64,000 nt of DNA from Octopus sinensis (lineage: Eukaryota): NCBI RefSeq assembly GCF_006345805.1, contig NC_042998.1, forward strand, positions 165,292,001-165,356,000, read 5' to 3'. Made by a program: the position numbers and the translations under genes. Positions 25,052 through 64,000 of this stretch are shown in pieces. The notes below the pieces were generated by a model. It saw nothing but the letters and a program-made list of their open reading frames with translations, did no database searches and had not been told where the DNA came from. Position 1 is the stretch's first letter. Every line of letters starts with the position of its first letter.

Positions 25052-26582
25052 ATGTCGTCTAGCATGGAGCCTACCGTTGGAGCAGAAATACTTGTTTCTC
25101 CTGTTGAGAGGAGGAAATACATGTCCGGCGAGGAGCCAACTACAGACAAGGAAATAGGGGTTTCCCCCGCTACAAGAAGGAATAGCAGAGAGGATAATAT
25201 ATTTGATATTTTTGGAGATGTGTCTGAGAGCTCGTCAGAACTTTCACCAGAAGAGTTTCCGACTTTGCCAGAGAACAAAGGCATTGTGTCGAAGAGAATA
25301 ATTGATGTGCCTAGCATCCAGATAGAACCAAAAAATGGAAAAAAAAAGTTTTGCGTTGGCTGCTGGGGGTGGAACCCAGATACTGTCGACGAATAAAAGC
25401 GAAATTATGAAATACAGCAAAATGATGGAAATAAATGACAACAGTGTGAAAATTGAACCTCCGCAAAAGTTATTACAGGAAGAAAAGCAAAAAACAATAA
25501 TTTTCAAAACATATTGTCTACAAATTAGAAAAATTGAAAGAATGTCAGAAGAGAAAATAGAAAAGTGCTTAAAGCCAATATTGGGCGACGTAGTATTTCT
25601 GAGAAGAGGAAAAAAATTCGGAACGGTGGAAGTAAGGTTCACCAATAAAGAAATAGCACACAAGAACTCAGTGGAAACGTTGAAAACGAACGACGTGGAG
25701 TTAATACCCTATTATATGGGGATGAGGACGTCGCGAATAAAAATTACAAGGGTCCCGCCAGAGGTCGAACCTATGTGGTTGTTGGCGGCAGTCCTAATCA
25801 AAGAGGTAGAAAAAATTACTCTCCTCCAGGCTACCGCTACGGAAAACCCACGCTGGGATGGTAAAACAATTAATCTTCTCATTCAAGCGGACCCTAAAAT
25901 AATTCAAACAATTCCTGAAACAATTGAGGTAGGGGAGGAGAACCTCGTGGTGTTTGTTGAGGGCCGAAAACCTCGATGTTTTTTATGTGGTCAATTAGGC
26001 CACATTCGAAGGAACTGCAAGGAAAATGAAGAAGAGGAGGAAGAGGAGAAAAAAGACAAAGAGGAAGAAGATAAAGAAGAAACAGATGAGAAAAAAACAA
26101 CAAACAAAAGAAAAATACAACCAGCAACCCAGCCGAGAGCGGCGACTACTACAGAACAACGACCAAAAAAGACTGCCAGAAGAGAAAAAGAAGAAAAAGG
26201 CATAATAGCCGTATACACTAAAGATACTGAGCTCATGAGAGACATTCAACTCATAAAGACTGTAAAAAAAATTGATAACCTTTCAGAGGAATTTATCAAT
26301 TACGACATATATGAAGTCTCAAATAAGACTTATAGAATTCTACAAAATAAGTACAGAAAGACTGTATCTTCATTGAGATTAGATTTTAACAAGTCGATAT
26401 TTCATGGATTACCAGCTCCGATCCCGCGAGAAAAGGAAAAGGTGGAGATTCCCCCTCCACCTGATAATTCTGTGTCGGTGGTGAGACGGGATTTTGACAA
26501 ATCTATTCCCAAGACCGTCCACCTCCGACCCTGGATAAAAAAAAATGTGGAGGGTCCCCCTCCACCGGACAATCCTGATTAA
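25052..26582 (+). pseudogene. Tx1 ORF1 (gag-like, CCHC knuckle), one frameshift in the A9 run at 25339-25347
   Basis: ORFs 25025-25396 and 25335-26582 join; CFLCGQLGHIRRNC knuckle; RRM-like FGTVEVRF. Confidence 0.85.
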
Positions 26583-26593
26583 ACAGGTAAGTG

Positions 26594-29500
26594 ATGGCTA
26601 TTCACATTGGTTGTTTAAATGTTCATGGCCTGTTGTCAAGCTGGAAGCAAGGACGCTTTCTGAATGACATCAGGTCGAGAAATTTGGATGTAATTGTTGC
26701 AACGGAAACCCGGGTGAAGGGGCCAAGAGATCTGCTCCCCCTCCTGAACGGCTACGAGAAATACGTTCTCCGAGTCGGGCGGGAGGTGGGGGTGGGTGTT
26801 GGTCCTACTAAAAAGAAACCGGGTAGCCGAGAAAAAGTTGGTTTTTTCTGACCCAGAAGGCAGGCTGGTCGTTCTCGACTTGACATTCAGTTGTGGCAAG
26901 ACAATCAGGCTGGTCGCTATTTATGCACCAAACATTATTGGCCCGCAAACTGAATATTTTCGTGGCCTAGGAAAGTTCCTAGCCACGTCGCATTCACTAG
27001 TAGTGTTAGGAGACTCTAATACAATATGTGCAGCACACACAGATTGTGTTGGCTCAAACTCGAACATGAACAGAAAATGTAACACAGGCTTTCGGGATCT
27101 GCTAAGTCAATTTCAGCTAGCAGATCCATATAGGTTGGAGCACCCGAACACTCCACAGTGGACGTGGTCAAATAGTGACGGGTCTACCAGAACATATCTA
27201 GATAGGATTTTAATTAGAGAAAAAGATAAGTCCATAGTTGAGTGTCCACAGTTTTTTCTAGTCAGCTACAGTGACCACAAGATGGTTACCTGTAAACTGA
27301 CGGTAGATAAGTTGCATAGACAGGGATCTGGCTACTGGAAACTCAATACGTCCCTTTTGGCGATTGAGGAGTACAGAAAGCGGATCAAGATGTTAATACA
27401 GAGGGCATTAACAGGTACCATCATTAATAACAAATGGTGGTACGCCCTAAAAAGAGCCATCAAATATGAGTCTATTAGGTTTAGCATAAGTTTAGCTAAG
27501 AAGGGACGTAAAATAGGAGATGGTCTAGTTAAGGAACTAGAAGAAGCCTGGAGGACTGGTAATACAGACCAAGCGAGGGTGAAAAGACTGGAGTTAAACC
27601 AGCATCTTGAAGCCCACCACATGGGAAGTATTACCAGAGCTAAGTTACGTGCAATGGGAAGTGAAGGAATCAAAGCCGCTGGATGGGCCCGAGTGGTGGA
27701 AGCTCGGCAAGGAAATAGTTCCTCTATTCGGTCTTTGACGAATCAAAATGGTGTCTTGATAAACGAACCCGAGAAAATGTGTGAGGTCTTTCGGGAGTAC
27801 TTCGCCCAGCTGTTCGGGGGTGACGGCGGTCCTGGTGGTGGGAGAGCCCTCGAGGACTTTCTTACCGGGCTGCCGTGCCTCTCGGGGTCGGATGCGGAGT
27901 CTTGCGAAGGGCCAATCACACTTGAGGAGGTGATGGAGGCTTTGGCCGATTGTAAAGCGGGTAAGTCACCGGGACTTGATGGTCTTCCGTACGAGCTGTA
28001 TAAATGTATGCCAGACTTGTTCGGGCAACTACTGACTGACGTGTACGCGAACTGGAAACGGAATGGGTTTATCCCCAGATCTGTGCGCCGGGGAGTAGTG
28101 ACGTTGGTCAGAAAGGACCCGGACAAGGGGACGTTCTAGAGAATTTCAGGCCCATCACTCTGTTAAACGCAGAAGTGAAGATTTTGGCCAAGGTTCTAGC
28201 AAAAAGGTTGGCGCGTGTCGCGAATGGTATAGTCGGGGAGGCACAGACATGTGCCATCCCAGGCAGAACCATTCAGGATACCCTCCATCTTATTCGCTAT
28301 ACCATAGAGAGGTTTGGTAATAAATCTGGCAAAGGTGGGGCATTGGTGCATTTGGACCAGTCTAAAGCTTTTGATAGGGTTGACCATCGATACCTAGCGA
28401 CTGTACTTGCGCGGTTTGGCCTGGGCCTTGGCTTCCTCAGGTGGTTTATCGCTTTGTACCACAACATTGACTCGATAGTTCGGGTGAACGGTTTCCTTTC
28501 GAAGCCGTTCTGCATCAGACGCTCGGTTCGTCAAGGATGTCCGCTTTCACCACTTTTGTATGTGATGGCTCTCGAGCCATTACTGCAAAGGTTGAGTGGC
28601 ATCCCGAGAGAACCAGGACTAGAGGAGTTTGTTACGGCTTTCGCGGATGATATCACTATCAGTGTAACCACAGTGGTACGCCTACGTGAAGTAGGTAAGA
28701 CTATTGAGGCTTACGAGGAGGTAGCAGGAGCAAAGATTAACCGGGAAAAGTCGGTCGGCTTGCAGCTCGGCACCTGGGTTGGCAAGTCGATGCCTTCAGA
28801 CAGTGTTGTTAGGCGCTGGACGGAGGGACCGGTTAAGTTGCTGGGAGTCTGGTTTGGACCAGGCCTCCAGATAGAGAAGAACTGGACGGAGGTATTGAGC
28901 AGGGTGGCTGCAGTAGTCAAGACTTGGTCTTGGCGGTGGCTATCCCTGAAGGGAGGGCGGAAGTGGCCAATGTGTTTATCGCATCGGTCATTACCTACCG
29001 CCTGACTGTCGTGCCCTGTCCGGATTCGTGGTTGATCAGGTTGGAGAGACAGCTCTTTCGCTTTTTGTGGAAGGGCAGGTCGCCACTTGTGAAACGCTCT
29101 GTCTGCTGTCAAAAGCCTTTAAATGGAGGTTTAGGGATGCCTTGGTTAATGATGCGCAGACATGCGTTGAGGTTGAGGCACCTCTGGATTCTCCTGGATA
29201 GTGAACGGGTGTGGTCTCCGCTGGCCAGACAAATGTTCCTGAGTTCAAGAGTTTTTGCGAACAGGAAGCCTGGTGTTCTTGTAGACCGAGGTCGAGTGAG
29301 TGGCATAAAGAGTGCCGTAAGGCCCTCTTGCTGTTCCGGCGCTCGGGCAACGCCAGCGGTGGGGGTTCCACACGGATTTTATATAGTGGGTTGGTAGAGT
29401 CTGAATGCGACGATGGCCTGGGGTCGACTCTAGGTCTCGGATTTATTCAACTGGACAGCTTGTTTCATCGTACATTCGGGTTGAGAACGTTGGACAACTT

Positions 29501-29990
29501 CCAGAAGTCCTTAACCTGGCAATGCTACAGAGGTGCCTTGCCCGTTTGGGATAAGCTCGCAAGACATGGTAAACGTCAGTCGCCGACCTGTCCAAGATGC
29601 GGTGGGGACAAGGAAACCGTCCCTCACGCTATTGTTCAGTGTCCGGAGATAACTGAAATGTGGGCTTATGCTGAACATCTGTTGTCCGGCGAAGGAAGAG
29701 TACGGCTGTCGACTGAGTCAATTATAAAAATTGACCCACCGGGAGTTCTAACGAACGAAGGTAAGAATTGTTTTCTCACGGTTGTAGCAATAGCAAAAGA
29801 GGCTGTATGGAATACTAGGATAAAAGGAATTAAGACAGGCAACTTTATCTCTGGTGACAATTTACGATCCTTTTTTTCTTTTCATTTGAAAAGGAAACTG
29901 TGGCTGGAGAAGAGGTGTCTGTCAGAGTGTACGTTCCAAAAGAGATGGAAGTATGTTGCACGAGTGTTGTGCGTGCAAGGAACCGTGTGA
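26594..29990 (+). pseudogene. Tx1 ORF2 (APE endonuclease, RT, C-terminal Zn finger), four frameshifts
   Basis: LNVHGL, ATET, IYAPN, GDSN, YLDRIL, SDH; KSPGLDGLP, LDQSKAFDRVDH, RQGCPLSP, FADD; CPRC..H...C; shifts near 26780, 28130, 28955, 29237. Confidence 0.92.
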
Positions 29991-31033
29991 ATAGACGAGG
30001 AAAAAAAATAAAAAGGTATCAGCGGTAGATCGGGGCTTGTGGGATCGGAGCGTAACTTGATCATCGCTTCATTTGTATTGTTTTTGTACTGTGTATTCCA
30101 TTCGATTTTTATGTATTGTATTTTATTTTTGATGTCACATTTATGTAAAATCATATCGATTCACTGATCCCATCAGTTGTACTGTCCATATCTATGTTTG
30201 GCCCCCGGTGGGCAATAAAGAAATTGGTATTTCGTCCTCCGCTACATTCTGAGTTCAAATTCCGCCGAGGTCGACTTTGCCTTTCATCCTTTCGGGGTCG
30301 ATAAAATAAGTATCAGTTATGCACTGGGGGCGATATTATCGACTTAATCCGTTTGTCAATCCTTGTTTGTCTCCTCTTTGTGTAGCCCCTTGTGGTCAGT
30401 AAAGAAATAAGAATGGAAATTCTGAGGGACGATATTTTGTTTGACAGATTTGCTTGGAGAGAGACATTAGCGATATTATGAGAGATCGAACTTGCTAATA
30501 AGGGAGACAAGTCAGTCTGACGCAAGATTTAATTTTCATAACCCTCCAAATGACTTCAACAATTTTGTTGTAAGATTTTTACAAAGAATTATGATTTAGT
30601 CACAAACTCGAAGACTTGAGGCATTATTAGTTCAAGAAGAACTGTCAGTTAAAACAAAAGAAAAAAAAGAAAGAAAAACGTAAAACTTGCTTGAACCAGC
30701 GAATAGTACAATTAAGACGATGAGTAGCATACGCTAAGCTTTGACAGATTTGAACTAAAATATTTAGTTACAAAGATCTAGTTACAGCTTTGTTTTATTG
30801 TCTGTGGCTTTGGACCAAAGGGATTGTTAATTAGCAGCAATAGGAAGTAAGGTAACGACAAATCAACGCAGTTTTGGCATTTCAATTAAAAGGTTGTTTA
30901 AATTATATCTAAAAAAATGGATGAATAAATGATAAAAGAATATTGAAGTGGGAAAAGAGGAGATTGGTGGGAGAATAGTGAGGAAGAAGAATGAAAAATT
31001 ATGTGAAATGCTAAAAGGTACACACACACAAAC

Positions 31034-31468: not shown

Positions 31469-31599
31469 TCTGTCGTTTACAAAACATTATTTCCAGAACT
31501 AGATACAGAACGCTCATCCGAAATTGAGCATGTATAAAGTTCTACTATTATATATTTGGGTGTATCTTTCAAATGCTTTGACTTTGGCATTTCGCATTT

Positions 31600-34500
31600 C
31601 GGCTGATATTGGCATTTCGCAGAACTCCTCATCCATGGTTGAGAGGCGTGGCATGCCACTAAGATAGGAGGTGAAATCCATCACCGTCCCAGAACCACCA
31701 CGCACCCATGCACTTCGGTGAAGTACCGCTGAAATTCCGCACACATCTGCTTAGACTCGGTTATCATGCACCCATCACAGATCGCCTAAGCCCGAAATGT
31801 TGCTTTGTTTCCACGCAGCGCCTCTGCATCCGGGCCCATAAAACGCTTTTGTCCCCTCCCATTTCAGTGCATACGCTTTAGTTCTAACAATGCAACCTCC
31901 GTGCTTGGCGTTGAAGAATTGATCAAGAGCCAATCTCGTCGCTAGCACGTCGGTCGCTGTGCTCTTCCTAAGCGCTTCTTCTAACGTCCTAACTTAGTCT
32001 CCCCCTCTCCTAGATTCCTCTAACGGTATTTCCTAACTAAAAACTACCGCCTCTAATCTAATAATCCTTTTCAGGGTTATCTACCATCTGCTTTTGACGA
32101 TCGCACTCGCCAAATTCCGATGCGCTAACTTGGTAACCCGGTCTCTGAAAGCTTGGGAAGGACGTGTTCATCTTCCAGTATCCGGGGCCCAGTCTATGGA
32201 TCCTATCTATGTCGACTGTACAAATCACAAATTTATGGTCCATATAGCCGACGACTTTGAAACATGGACAATTTATATTACTTCTATCTACAGGCCTACA
32301 AATTACTCTATCTTGATACGATCTGGAAGACCAGACGTGGTTCATTCATGTCCACATTGGCGCATTCGGAAAATCCAGTAAGTTCCTGTCATCCAACAGG
32401 AAGCGACTGAGCAGTTTTGTGAGGTTTTTACTCCTCCTCTCCTGTCAACTAACAATAAAGGGCGTGACGTCCCAAGGAAAACCTCCAAACATCTGGAGAA
32501 ATCTGGCTTCCCCACCCCCTTGGGGTCATAAACAGCGACTAGACTAAAGGCATCACCTTCACTGTCGCTCAGGCCCAGGACTTACCCTCCGGGTCCAGGA
32601 AGATCGTCCGAACTTCGAGAAACAGGCCTTTCCTAAACAGCATTGCTACCGCCTCCCATTCTGGGCCGACTAAGAGATGCGTAGAACACACAGTCGTCGA
32701 AAATGTGTGCAAGATCGCGTGTGTCGGAAAGCCTGGTCTCACTGGCTGCAATCAGATCCAAACCTAGCGACCTGAGGTCATTGAGCAAGCGACCTTGCTT
32801 CCAGGGCGACCTCAGGCCGCGAACATTTATGCAGCCTATTCTGAAAATCACCATGACGGCTCGAAAGGGTTGAAGAAAAGAGAAAAAGAGCGGGGTTACA
32901 TACCCTCCTGGATCTGGTAGTAGCCTGATAACCAGGGCTCTGGATCTGGTTCCTCTGGGAAACCGGCTAAAAGCCTGTTCGTGGCGCAGACGTTTGGCCT
33001 TTCTACGTCATGCTGGAAATCCCTCTGAATTTCTTTGTGTTTAGAGGTGTAGCCAAATTAGCATTAAGTGATCCGGAATGTTAAGGGTGCTGGTGTCGTA
33101 AATTGCACCTTCTGTCTGAATCTCCTTGTTACTGGCTATGGGAGCCAACAAATTTTTGTTGGCTCTCCTCATGAGCACATAATTCAATGTTTCCGTATTG
33201 ATGACTGTGAACTTTGTTTTGGGGTCTACATGTGGTTGTGAGTGTTTTGGTGGATTTGGTTGGGGTAGTGGTGATTTTGGTGCTGTTGTTGTTTTTGCCG
33301 TCTATGTCCTATGTGCAGGGGGTTTCAGTGCTTTCAGTGTTAGTGTAGGTTCGTCTTCTTTATCTTTTGTCTTAAGGTTTTTTTGCTTTTGCCTTGTAGC
33401 GTTTTTTCTCATCTTCCCTACTGGATGAAGAGGAAGTAGTGTCTGTAGGATTTGCCTCGGGGAGAATGACTGTGTTTGTGGCAGTATTAGCATGTTGGTG
33501 TGATTGTATGATTGAGAAAGAGGGCAAAGAAGGCTGGTTTGACAGATACTCTGAGTGGTTTCCTCCATCCAATGGGATTCACATGTTTCGGTTGTTGTTG
33601 GAGATGAAGCTACCGTTTTATTAAAATGTCTCTGTTGTTGCTGTTGCTATTGTTGAAAGTGCAATGTAGGTTGCAGGTCTAGCCACGTACTTCCCAAATT
33701 TTGGGGGTAAGAAGCTCTCAGGTGGCTTATGGTCCCAGAGAAGTCGCATCTGGGCTTCTTGTCTTCCACGACAACAAGCAATTCCCCCTTGTTGGGTAGC
33801 TGGATAAGGTCCGAGATTTTCTCGATATTTCCTGGTTTCACATGGATTAATATTTCCAAGTTGATCCCACAGCAGTTCTCCCTGCTGCTCCTTTTTACCT
33901 CCAGGAGTGATTCTGAGCCGTGCACCACACAGGTGACAATCCATCTGACGTTTGCTCCTGGTGGCACATCATTTACACTAATTCTGGTCGTCCAATTTCA
34001 GAAGTAGGAGGATGCAGGACCCACTCCTCAGTCCATCGGCGTGGCACTGCGTTTCTTTGCGAGAGGTCCTTACTTTTAAAGAAGAACTCAATGCTGGCAA
34101 ATTCCCCTCACTCCGTATATGGACCACATCTATTAAAGTTTCTCTGAGGGCCTTCTCAGCATGACTGATGGAGGCTATTTCAACTGGTCTACTTTTGCAG
34201 GATTCGCATCTGAAGTATACTGTCTTCTTTTTTGCCTCTATTATTTCGGTAGGTACGAACACTGCAGCCTTACCCCGCTCAGACTTAATGATGTCTTTCG
34301 CTTTTGAGAGTTCAGGAGTTTTGTCATCGAGTGCGATAGCAAACATTTCTCTCTTTGAGTTCACTACCTCAGCAAACCTTTTATTTTTGTTATTGTCTTT
34401 GTTGTTGTCGTCGTCGTTGCTGTTGTTATCGTTGTTGTTACTGCTGCTGCTGCTGTTCGTGGTGATGGAGTTGTGGCCACTTTCACCGTTATCGCTATTT

Positions 34501-35090
34501 CCCTCCACTCCGCCTTCAACTGTAGGATTATTTTTTCCGCTAAAATCCGTAGCAGTGTTAACGAAACTGCTGTCTCTGCGGTTATTGTCACTGCCACTGA
34601 TGCTGCTGCCCTTGCCGCTTCTCGCGTTGTAGTAGCTACCACTACTACTACTGTAGCTGCTGCCGCTGTTAGGGTCACAGCTACCACTACTGTTGTCAAT
34701 GTTGCCACTGGTGTACTTTGTACTTTTCTGCCTCCCTTTTTCCCCTCCTCTCCTGTATTGTGGCCTGTAATGGAGGGACAGGGAAGGGAAATCTTCAGCA
34801 GTCACTAGACCTGCGGGAGATATAGTTTTTTCTTAACTTTTTCAAGATGCGCCCCACTCATCTTGTTGAATTGTATATGATTAAACAACCACCGAACTTA
34901 CTTGGTGGGCAGAATATAGCCCCGTAAGGGGCCAAACAAACACAGAAACCCAGTGACAAGTTCTTGGTGTTTCTATTAACAACTTGGAACAAAATATAAA
35001 CCGAAAAAACGGCAGCAAACGGGTGTAAACAATTGTTTTCAAAAGAACTTACTTGGAGGGTTCAAAAACACGTCCGATGCACTCCGCAGC
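31600..35090 (-). mobile_element. 3'-truncated, decayed Tx1-clade element (element 2): 5'UTR, ORF1, APE domain and tether
   Basis: IGCINVRGLRSPWKQGRLLNDLRS (32633-32854), LDPEGK, YMDHK, GPGYWKMNTS, CEMPISAE; ORF1 pieces VVVEDKKPRC; homologous to element 1. Confidence 0.88.
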
Positions 35091-35102
35091 AAATACAATA
35101 AA

Positions 35103-45753: not shown

Positions 45754-45843
45754 TATAGATAACCTTAAAAATTATAAAATTAAGGAAATATATTCCAATT
45801 TGAAATTGGGAAGCAAACTGTAAACTAGTATTGAAACCGTTCA

Positions 45844-46077
45844 TAAGGCGGCGAGCTGGTAGAAACGTTAGCACACCGGGCGAAATGCTTTGCGGTATTT
45901 CGTCGGTCGTTACGTTCTGAGTTTAAATTCTGCCGAGGTCGACTTTGCCTTTCATCCTTTCGGGGTCGATAAATTAAGTACCAGTTACGCACTGGGGTTG
46001 ATGTAATCGACTTAATCCGCTTGTCTGTTCTTGTTTGTCCCCTCTGTGTTTAGCCCCTTGTGGGTAGTAAAGAAATA
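45844..46077 (+). mobile_element. Near-consensus SINE family A (Tx1-type tail A) with 15-bp TSD
   Basis: Full head/core/tail; TSD AGTATTGAAACCGTT (45827-45841) / AGTATTGAAATCGTT (46078-46092). Confidence 0.92.
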
Positions 46078-46092
46078 AGTATTGAAATCGTT

Positions 46093-47682
46093 GTTTCTTT
46101 CTTTATTGCCCACAAGAGGCCCACACAGAAGGGACAACATAAAATAAAATTAAACGTATAATAAGATGAATGATAACATGAAAATGATAATGAAAATGTG
46201 CTGCTTGCACCACCTCAAGCAGCATCACTTCCTTGGTAATCCTTTTACTACATATACAACACATTCCTCTAATAGTTGTTCATACCCTATGCTGTCTGGT
46301 ATCCTTTTAGCGTCTGTATTGATTTTCCAGAACTTATAACCTTTTTTTCTATTTCCTCACTTCTTCTATCTGCTTTTCTGAAACTAGCACACACATGTGC
46401 CACCCTATTGTGTTCGTATATCCTTTTGTATCGACAAATTTTGCCGTCTTCCAATCTGTTACTTTCCGAATTAGTTCCTTATTCTCTTTGTTCGTCAATA
46501 TACAAACGTAATTTACTTCGCGGGGAGGGGAATTCTTTGTACTTTGTTGTAATTGCATTTCTTTTTGGATTGAGTAGGGGGGATGTATGTGGGTTCGGTG
46601 TTTGTGGGGAGAGGGTGGGTCTGAGATTGTATGGGTGGGGTGGGTAAGGTTTGGGGTTCCAAATCACTCTGTCCTTTCTTCCTCTTTTTCCTTCTTTCTT
46701 CTGAAATTATCCATGCTTCCTCTCTTTCCTTTTCCTCTTCTTGCTTCTTTTCCGGCCTCACGTCCATCCTTTCTGAAGTCTGCTTCTGCAGAAGACAGTG
46801 TGCTTTAATGTGGCTTTCTTGGCCACATTTAAAACACTGAGGAGTCCTGCCCTCCACCCACACTTTCAACACTACACCTCCGACTGATACCGCTTCCACC
46901 AAACAATCCAGTGCTTCCACCGCGGCCTGCACAACCAGATCCACTGCTTAGAGCTTCCAAATCAAGCCCACCGCCCATGTGACCTGGAGGATGGCCACTT
47001 TCTCCCCACCTCCCAGAAGAACAGCCGATGCGACCCAAGCCACATCTACCTCCGGTGGTACTCCCTCTACCCCAATCATGGAAGTCCCTCTTCCAAACAA
47101 GTGGGTAGAAGGACTATCTTGCCCGATTTTACCGTGTCCATAGCGAGCTCCCCTGCCCTAACCTCCGTCCTGAAATGGACTACAATAGCTCCGAATTCAC
47201 CTCCTCCGGTCAGTTACGCTATGTCCCACCAGACCGAGCACAACGCCCTTTCCATAATTTCAGCTTCTACATGTTCCACCTTCCCCTCCTCCACCGAGTA
47301 CACCCTGTATACCACAGTCTTCCAGTCCACTATCTTCTGTGGCGGTGACAGCTCAACGTCACTACCCACTCCACATACCACCTCCTCACATCCTTCAACA
47401 TTTGAAAGGACTACCTCCCCTTTGCCCACCTCTGTAGAACTTCCCCTCCCCAGGCACCTATCTATCCCATCGACAGCGAGTACCAGCTCCTCCTCCGAAG
47501 ACGACAACTCGGAACCACCAAGGTCCGATCAAAACATCCTTTTTGCCATGGCTATCTTTCGAAAAAATCGAGAGAAAGCACAAGAAAACCGCTGCAAAGC
47601 AGCACAAAACAACCAACAATTCAAACAGCAGCAACTCCAAACAACAATCAAACCTCAGCCCACCAGAATGCTCGACGAAATT
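46093..47682 (-). mobile_element. ORF1-only Tx1-derived non-autonomous element (element 3), frameshifted
   Basis: PPQKIVDWKTVVYRVY, VWVEGRTPQCFKCGQESHIKAHC; 3' end GGCCTCTTGTGGGCAATAAAGAAAGAAAC; 23-bp repeat TGTAAACTAGTATTGAAACCGTT at 45819-45841 and 47683-47705; no ORF2 sequence. Confidence 0.85.
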
Positions 47683-48153
47683 TGTAAACTAGTATTGAAA
47701 CCGTTATTGCATGTATGGAGAGACACGGCGTTTTTATTATGAGTGGGCTGCAATATGTAAATGAAGTAATAAATTATTGACATTCGAGAATCTCATGGTA
47801 ATTGTTAATCTGTGATTGTTTCTTTAATATGTAAATTAATGACTTTGCTGTCGAAAATCTTATTATTATATTTCATATTAAATATCATATTATTTAAATT
47901 CTATGATATCATTGATTAAGAAAAATTTATTGTTTGAGGCAAGTTCATTAATTGTGGACATTATAATGAGAGAAATTCATACATTTCAAACTTGTTTTTT
48001 TTTATCACTGCATACACATAGATTTTCCATATGAGCACATTTGATTACATCAGTAGGATACAATCAAAATATTTTGAAGCACTCATTCTCAGGACAAAAA
48101 TATAATATATTATCCTTAATACAGCTGCAACAAAAGCTATATTGCAACCACTC

Positions 48154-48497
48154 AAGGCGGCGAGCTGGCAGAAACGTTAGCACGTCGGGCGAAATACTTA
48201 GCAGTATTTCGTCTGCAGTTACGTTGTGAGTTCTTGTTTGTCCCCTCTATGTTTAGCCCCTTGTGGGTAATAAAGAAATAAGAAACGTTAGCACGCCGGG
48301 TGAAATGCGTGGCCGTATTTCGTCTGCCGTTACGTTCTGAGTTCAAATTCTGCCGAGGTCAACTTTGCCTTTCATCTTTTCGGGGTCGATAAATTAAGTA
48401 CCAGTTGCGCACTGGGGTCGATGTAATTGACTTAATCCGTTTGTCTGTCCTTGTTTGTCCTCTCTGTGTTTAACCCCTTGTGGGTAGTAAAGAAATA
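48154..48497 (+). mobile_element. Dimeric/nested SINE family A (two tail A ends) with 17-bp TSD
   Basis: TSD TATATTGCAACCACTCA on both sides; internally deleted first unit ends AAAGAAATA at 48280, second unit restarts at AGAAACGTTAGC. Confidence 0.88.
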
Positions 48498-63799: not shown

Positions 63800-64000
63800 T
63801 TCTTCTATAGGCATAAGGTCTGAAGTTTTGGGAAAGGGGATAAGTCGATTACATCCACTCCAGTGCATAACTGGTACTTATTTAATCGACCTCAAAATGA
63901 TGAAAGACAAAGTGGACCTCGGCATGATTTGAACTCAGAATATAAAGACGGACGAGATACCAATTTCTTTACTACCCACAAGGGGCTAAACACAGAGGGA
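63800..64000 (-). mobile_element. SINE family A (tail B) interrupted by an element with Tx1-type tail A that runs off the window
   Basis: Minus: ..GCCCCTTGTGGGTAGTAAAGAAATT|GGTATCTCGTC..GAGTTCAAATC.. Confidence 0.8.

Follow-up and report, generated by a model that had tools for sequence, protein, structure and literature searches.

LINEs that have kept ORF1 and dispensed with ORF2 are already known. The ORF1-bearing non-autonomous LINEs described so far include HAL1 in the L1 clade, HeT-A in Jockey and Ag-Sponge in CR1 (PMC5786205, PMC5753468, PMC13534243, PMC4494074); HAL1, the half-L1 of mammals, arose several times (PMC5753468), and repeated loss of ORF2 has been described (PMC13534243). 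HeT-A and other ORF1-only telomeric Jockey elements, as well as Ag-Sponge, rely on ORF2 supplied in trans (PMC5786205), a trait in which they probably resemble the element that we describe here, a 1.6-kb ORF1-only retrotransposon copy on the minus strand of a stretch of octopus DNA (47682-46093; hereafter the half-LINE). HeT-A and Ag-Sponge belong to other clades, and HeT-A is telomeric, whereas the half-LINE is interspersed and flanked by a 23-bp duplication. With HAL1 the half-LINE shares being non-autonomous, carrying ORF1 only and keeping both ends of the parent LINE, but it is not a HAL1 in the proper, mammalian L1-derived sense: its named relatives are octopus proteins and its ORF1 bears a zinc knuckle. 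Mammalian L1 ORF1p is built of a coiled coil, an RRM and a CTD, whereas the ORF1 of the half-LINE is of the invertebrate L1/Tx1-group type, with predicted tandem RRM-like domains and a CCHC knuckle. Moreover, the half-LINE ends in a sequence-specific tail that is shared with SINEs, in contrast to the mere poly(A) of HAL1, and it is known as a single copy whose ORF1 is dead.

Genomic copies of retroelements may also preserve a record of editing. In vertebrates, APOBEC-edited retroelements carry strand-specific hypermutation acquired during retrotransposition and fixed in the genomic copy (PMC4866542, PMC2873906), a likeness to the half-LINE that stops at the kind of change and of element: the vertebrate cases are G-to-A changes in LTR elements, whereas the half-LINE is a non-LTR element, from an invertebrate, with A-to-G changes. 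The portions of this genomic hypermutation work on which we draw report clusters of other types as negligible and invertebrates as depleted (PMC4866542, PMC2873906). Dense A-to-G changes on one strand over a bounded stretch, as in the half-LINE, are the mark of repeat RNAs and viral genomes hyper-edited by ADAR, although these have been reported from RNA reads and the half-LINE signal lies in genomic DNA. A 2016 review considered the role of ADAR editing in retroelement mutation to be undetermined (PMC4982230).

We analysed the half-LINE within a 64-kb stretch of octopus DNA (the window), and the features discussed below are collected in Table 1. The copy combines full-length ORF1 homology with the lack of endonuclease and reverse transcriptase (RT), a LINE 3' end and a target-site duplication. 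A 5' UTR had been claimed in the first-pass annotation, made from the sequence alone, and a T/G-rich leader is indeed present; it bears no significant resemblance to the leader of element 1 or of element 2, the other two LINEs considered here. The 23-bp flanking repeat noted at the same time is perfect and has exactly two occurrences in the window, where none is expected, but its left copy does not abut the half-LINE, because a nested SINE lies in between. This SINE, which had been overlooked together with the A-to-G hypermutation described below, makes up an insertion of 251 bp between the half-LINE and its left repeat, and its own 15-bp duplication (45827-45841 and 46078-46092) is made up of the 23-mer's final 15 bp. 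The right 23-bp repeat also finds its match in the 8 bp that precede the SINE's left duplication, from which it follows that the half-LINE was inserted first and the SINE later. The opposite order is ruled out by the same match, which is to those 8 bp and not to the SINE tail, and twin priming is ruled out by the position of the inverted SINE on the 3' side of the half-LINE, not on its 5' side.

Table 1. Features of the half-LINE locus and of the comparator LINE in the window (strand cells are empty where no orientation applies).
Feature	Positions	Strand	Remarks
Target-site duplication (23 bp), left copy	45819-45841		23/23 identical to 47683-47705
SINE, later insertion at the 3' junction of the half-LINE	45842-46077	+	Many copies in the window; own 15-bp duplication
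15-bp duplication of the SINE, right copy	46078-46092		14/15 identical to 45827-45841
3' tail of the half-LINE	46093-46137	-	4-bp stem, 5-nt loop, AATAAA, A-rich end
Last ORF1 codons (uncertain) and short 3' UTR	46138-46291	-	Possible stop beginning at 46227
Distal ORF1: charged linker and C-terminal domain	46292-46822	-	A-rich, unshifted
5' ORF1: predicted tandem RRM-like domains and CCHC knuckle	46823-47549	-	A-to-G shifted
5' leader	47550-47682	-	133 nt, T/G-rich (T 0.45, G 0.29)
Target-site duplication (23 bp), right copy	47683-47705		Identical to the left copy
Element 1: comparator two-ORF L1/Tx1-group LINE, of a family other than that of the half-LINE	25052-30222	+	Knuckle ORF1; ORF2 with EN, RT and zf-RVT; same tail

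The SINE entered exactly at the 3' junction of the half-LINE, tail to tail, so that the same cleavage position was reused. The tail-to-tail arrangement creates an inverted repeat (46035-46137), and it is this structure that accounts for a subthreshold Rfam match to MIR158 at 46033-46140 (33 bits against a gathering score of 67). Many Tx1 members prefer particular target sequences; the 23-mer at the target site of the half-LINE does not recur in the window beyond its two copies, and no RNA family was found there.

The last 40 nt of the half-LINE align with the 3' ends of both element 1 and the SINE, at scores of 36 and 45, which none of 2000 shuffles reached, and the tail motif has eight matches in the window against 1.05 expected. 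Tail copies lie at 30191-30222, 30360-30411, 46028-46077, 48230-48282, 48446-48497 and 63957-63999. The "shared hairpin tail" of the first-pass annotation is therefore shared, by element 1 and by SINEs, but a strong hairpin finds no support: the structure comes down to a 4-bp stem with a 5-nt loop, a two-sided change is seen at one of its four pairs among six tails, and in none of five cases did a single tail fold clearly better than its shuffles (z from +0.3 to -1.6). A common 3' tail is also the hallmark of stringent LINE/SINE pairs, where it is read as the recognition signal of the RT, the L1-clade cases cited coming from a monocot lineage and a green alga (PMC3747384); in the octopus window, in contrast, one 40-nt tail is common to two distant L1/Tx1-group families and to a subset of the abundant SINE copies. 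The shared tail makes these LINEs the likely mobilisers of that SINE subfamily. At 30222-30226, behind the tail of element 1, and at 63957-63999, behind another tail at the end of the window, a 5'-truncated SINE follows directly after the tail end, in both cases from the same internal start point, which suggests a preferred insertion site within the SINE.

Element 1 served as our main comparator. It has the layout of the L1/Tx1 group, with a knuckle-bearing ORF1 and an ORF2 that comprises an APE endonuclease, an RT and a C-terminal zinc domain (PF00098, PF03372, which is below its curated cut-off, PF00078 and PF13966). Its RT carries generic atlas names and the half-LINE has no RT; the label that we use throughout is "L1/Tx1 group". 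Over 44% of the query, the ORF1 of element 1 shares 99% identity with a protein named Octopus vulgaris, and all six matches of the corresponding search are octopus proteins. By this criterion the window, a piece of repeat-rich animal DNA, likely comes from O. vulgaris or a near relative. Element 1 is near full length (25052-29990, plus strand) and 93-99% identical to named O. vulgaris proteins over the matched parts, with frameshifts in both ORFs. Element 2 (31598-35100, minus strand) has kept its leader, ORF1 and endonuclease; its RT and tail are not seen, and it is either 3'-truncated or deleted.

The homology of the half-LINE ORF1 to those of elements 1 and 2, claimed at first pass, stands. 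The ORF1 of element 1 matches 47363-46603 of the half-LINE by tblastn (E 7e-32, 28-33% identity), and that of element 2 matches the ORF1 of element 1 at E 2e-12, its direct matches to the half-LINE being weak; the PPQK and VEGRxPxCFxCG motifs are both present. Homology extends from 47438 or earlier to about 46292, that is, into the C-terminal domain. At this distal end, a profile built from eight relatives matches 46504-46292 (E 8e-7 among 9 frames), and P0113, one of the eight and the relative whose match extends deepest into the distal half, aligns with a score of 148 against a shuffle maximum of 51. P0113 is itself a gene model, a Helitron helicase with an embedded ORF1 piece akin to that of the half-LINE and without EN or RT; as evidence for a family it was dropped, because stretches of sequence can be left out of gene models and because none of 18 relatives scanned has ORF2 domains, which P0002 and P0005, proteins of element 1's ORF2-bearing family, lack as well. 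Against 1.84 billion representatives, a profile that included the half-LINE's own pieces gave 327 ORF1 relatives at E 0.001; the 150 listed and our earlier matches form a working set of 154 proteins. Among the matches listed, the closest are 44-51% identical to the half-LINE. A Pfam search with the knuckle piece gave no match, and in word-index protein searches with the knuckle-side piece not one of 1000 longer and 129 near-length candidates matched at E 0.001.

What does not stand is an open frame. Downstream of the likely start, an ATG at 47549, stops begin at 47531 (already codon 7), 47216, 46950, 46351 and 46336 (and 46309), and the frame is shifted near 47105 and again near 46580-46540. 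With at least five stops and two frameshifts this ORF1 is dead, so the copy supplies no chaperone, and the proposal that the element "supplies its own RNA chaperone" is false for it, all the more as its conserved residues are heavily substituted in the A-to-G sense. Stops, frameshifts and replaced conserved residues are not what a sequence under purifying selection would display. The protein of the half-LINE's group is a different matter. The structure model of the element 1 ORF1 (mean pLDDT 78.7), from which we also predict the RRM-like fold of the half-LINE ORF1, resembles RNA-binding proteins with tandem RRMs (68 chains at E <=0.001, with low TM-scores), and the same ORF1 carries a CCHC knuckle; on these modelled grounds, the family protein is likely to be an RNA-binding chaperone.

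The absence of endonuclease and RT sequence, on which the idea of a HAL1-like element had been built, was upheld. Four segments of the element 1 ORF2 gave a single 10-residue chance match in the half-LINE (E 3.5), the N- and C-termini of ORF2 scored at shuffle level against its distal 600 nt (the best score was reached by 142 of 1000 shuffles), and a mere 200 nt or so is left between the end of ORF1 homology and the end of the half-LINE. To put a figure on the cleanness of this loss, we used a toy model of uniform internal deletions in an element-1-like LINE, scoring those that removed ORF2 and kept both the tail and ORF1 down to its last domain. The geometry of the half-LINE was obtained in 2632 of 438516 deletions of at least 500 bp (0.6%) and in 2632 of 95266 deletions of at least 3 kb (2.8%). 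Such rarity favours a loss under selection for ORF1 and tail, in other words an ORF1-only RNA, and we think it likely that the RNA already lacked ORF2 when it was inserted. Thus, the HAL1-like reading fits the geometry (ORF1 reaching into the C-terminal domain, ORF2 gone, ends and duplication kept) but not the state of ORF1. With ORF1 present and ORF2, the second gene of such elements, missing, the half-LINE probably depended for its movement on the enzymes of full-length relatives. It works like the ORF1-only non-autonomous LINEs, in an instance known from a single copy with a dead ORF1.

Alternatively, a full two-ORF element could have lost its ORF2 to a post-insertion deletion or, in the course of this one insertion, to a template jump, in which case there would be no ORF1-only family and the A-to-G shift would be a separate event. 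We find this unlikely, although it agrees with the presence of a single half-LINE copy in the 64-kb window, where the tblastn matches of all 154 relatives fall solely in elements 1 and 2 and in the half-LINE. (The sole locus that came out of a contig profile search, with 236 candidate stretches, was bacterial secD/secF, which matches neither element 1 nor any of the 154 relatives.) It also agrees with the damage to element 2, which tells us that post-insertion damage occurs in this window, and with the size of recently active L1-Tx1 insertions in O. vulgaris, which average about 5.4 kb (2,288,644 bp in 421 insertions; PMC13282606 Table 1) in a species for which 80 L1-Tx1 families are annotated over 56 Mb (PMC13282606). 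A weak likeness of 46240-46200 to the ORF1/ORF2 junction and to the ORF2 end of element 1 points the same way without being significant, 589 and 506 of 2000 shuffles, respectively, being as good. A stop-start overlap is found at 46240-46195 (minus strand), after the likely end of ORF1. Against a one-off loss stands the rarity of so clean a random deletion (0.6-2.8% in our toy model), and integration would presumably be less likely for an autonomous RNA that acts in cis and whose ORF1 has been edited.

The more unusual feature of the half-LINE is the A-to-G hypermutation of its 5' half. Over the homologous cores, base counts are G207/A130/C92/T131 in the half-LINE and G130/A215/C97/T128 in element 1, a difference that concerns G and A (p 7e-10) and leaves C and T alone (p 0.70), and the distal halves of the two elements are alike in composition (p 0.19). 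A change point at 46823, which coincides with the boundary between knuckle and linker, separates a 5' side with a G/(A+G) of 0.64 from a distal side with 0.34; its log-likelihood gain is 36, versus 4.7 and 9.2 for change points in elements 1 and 2. We also compared 122 ORF1 sequences whose alignment covers 80 columns or more, leaving out about 32 shorter ones. In G-minus-A shift at codon positions 1 and 2 the half-LINE exceeds all the others (0.257, versus -0.003 +/- 0.062 in the others; z 4.2), with C and T unchanged.

The direction of change, which we take from the family consensus because the nearest relatives are only 44-51% identical as proteins, is from A to G. When the real codons of the half-LINE are set against the consensus of its six nearest relatives, 31 of 93 consensus-A sites read G and 9 of 82 consensus-G sites read A (p 9e-5; p 0.003 with 10 neighbours and 2e-4 with 20), and T-to-C occurs at 1 of 46 sites. 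The same comparison in element 1, as a control, yields 14/133 A-to-G and 11/78 G-to-A (p 0.51). At 77 conserved columns the half-LINE has 15 replacements of A-to-G type, a rate reached by none of 145 other sequences. Two-fold third positions read G25/A9 in the N-terminal frame, versus G10/A35 in element 1, and show no shift in the middle frame (G9/A9). By the ratio of A-to-G minus G-to-A over all differences, the half-LINE stands out less, ranking 8th of 131 (15 versus 7 among 36 differences).

A sense-strand excess of A-to-G over both G-to-A and T-to-C, clustered within bounds, is the pattern of ADAR hyper-editing, and we judge ADAR to be the probable, if by no means assured, cause of the shift. 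Octopus has an exceptionally high rate of RNA hyper-editing (PMC5625713); on the other side, a cell assay showed no editing of human L1 RNA by ADAR1 (PMC5224506). In the adjacent SINE there is no comparable local bias (T-to-C at 1 of 11 differences over 161 columns), and the target duplication carries no mutation, which makes it likely that the shift is older than the insertion. Other marks are equivocal or unfavourable: A-to-G changes follow G at 2 of 15 sites and A or U at 10 of 22 (p 0.07), an asymmetry that element 1 also shows; A-to-T is raised as well, at 12/93 versus 6/133 in element 1; and only one of four Tyr codons is altered. No inverted half-LINE copy that could have served as duplex partner exists in the 64-kb window, and the 5' half folds on itself no better than 20 shuffles.

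The shift has also to be weighed against a true HAL1-like, ORF1-only family, in which a master element would make a working ORF1p, the G-rich half would stem from slow lineage-wide evolution of base composition, perhaps by repeated light editing with selection acting as a filter, and the present copy would have decayed after insertion. Such families have precedents, as ORF1-only LINEs arise repeatedly (PMC5786205, PMC13534243), and the loss of ORF2 is clean. Conservative exchanges, such as I to V and K to R, account for many of the replacements in the half-LINE, the ligands of the CCHC knuckle have survived along with PPE and VEGR, and the nearest relatives lean toward G too, by 0.08-0.12 versus 0.26 in the half-LINE, so part of its shift may be lineage-wide. 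However, conserved columns also bear radical changes (R to G twice, K to G twice), the shift is more than twice that of any relative except one, and it is missing from the distal half of the same ORF, all of which makes slow evolution of a working family an improbable account. As for a source other than ADAR (RT errors under unbalanced dNTP pools, a transcription-coupled strand asymmetry or GC-biased conversion), the raised A-to-T and the neighbour counts shared in trend with element 1 would suit it, but we give it very little credence, as C is not raised and T-to-C stands at 1/46, contrary to GC-biased conversion, and as the unbiased SINE and distal half and the unmutated target duplication speak against any local process at the DNA level.

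A second ORF1 relative, P0026, has a strong A-to-G-type shift (0.245), which runs across its whole open frame of 264 residues. P0026 might represent an edited transcript; alternatively, it could be another genomic instance.

The explanation that we prefer, and put forward tentatively, is that the half-LINE is a dead single copy of an ORF2-less RNA of the L1/Tx1 group that borrowed ORF2p through its tail and had its 5' half edited by ADAR before reverse transcription. The clean geometry of the excision suggests that ORF2 would have been lost from this RNA before insertion. A putative antisense RNA would then have paired with the 5' half, and ADAR would have hyper-edited the paired part. Inosine is copied as G, so that editing of this kind would end up as A-to-G in the DNA copy. 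The tail would have stayed unedited, hence readable, and the ORF2p of a partner LINE could have inserted the edited RNA through it, as presumably happens with the SINEs of the same tail, by target-primed reverse transcription that would produce the 23-bp duplication. Because the edited RNA would encode a damaged ORF1p, its insertion probably drew on ORF1p in trans or needed none. A-to-G changes cannot make stops from sense codons, and we therefore read the stops as ordinary decay, to which the frameshifts would also belong; the insertion of the SINE followed as well. A broader version, in which octopus harbours an ORF1-only Tx1-like LINE family on the SINE-shared tail and the half-LINE is a germline fossil of one of its ADAR hyper-edited RNAs, is conceivable but rather doubtful.

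In the literature searched, which comprised few subscription papers and did not extend to Repbase, making this a weak negative, we found no report of an ORF1-only Tx1 family, and Tx1 is not mentioned in the portion of the octopus LINE paper that we used (PMC9115989). A Tx1-like ORF1-only case in a mollusc would in any event be a modest extension beyond the L1, Jockey and CR1 clades. An A-to-G-hypermutated genomic copy of a LINE, of which the literature searched likewise contained no report, may be new. This signature matters more than the ORF1-only status of the element, for it bears on the heritable mutation of retroelements by ADAR.

If the signature is real and recurrent, it would mean that RNA editing acts in the cephalopod germline and that there is a route from edited RNA to A-to-G changes in the genome, and a simple genome-wide screen follows from it. 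If the broader version of our explanation holds and P0026 counts as another case, the retroelements of cephalopods would be subject to heritable mutation by A-to-I editing, and their editing by ADAR would constitute the invertebrate counterpart of APOBEC DNA editing.
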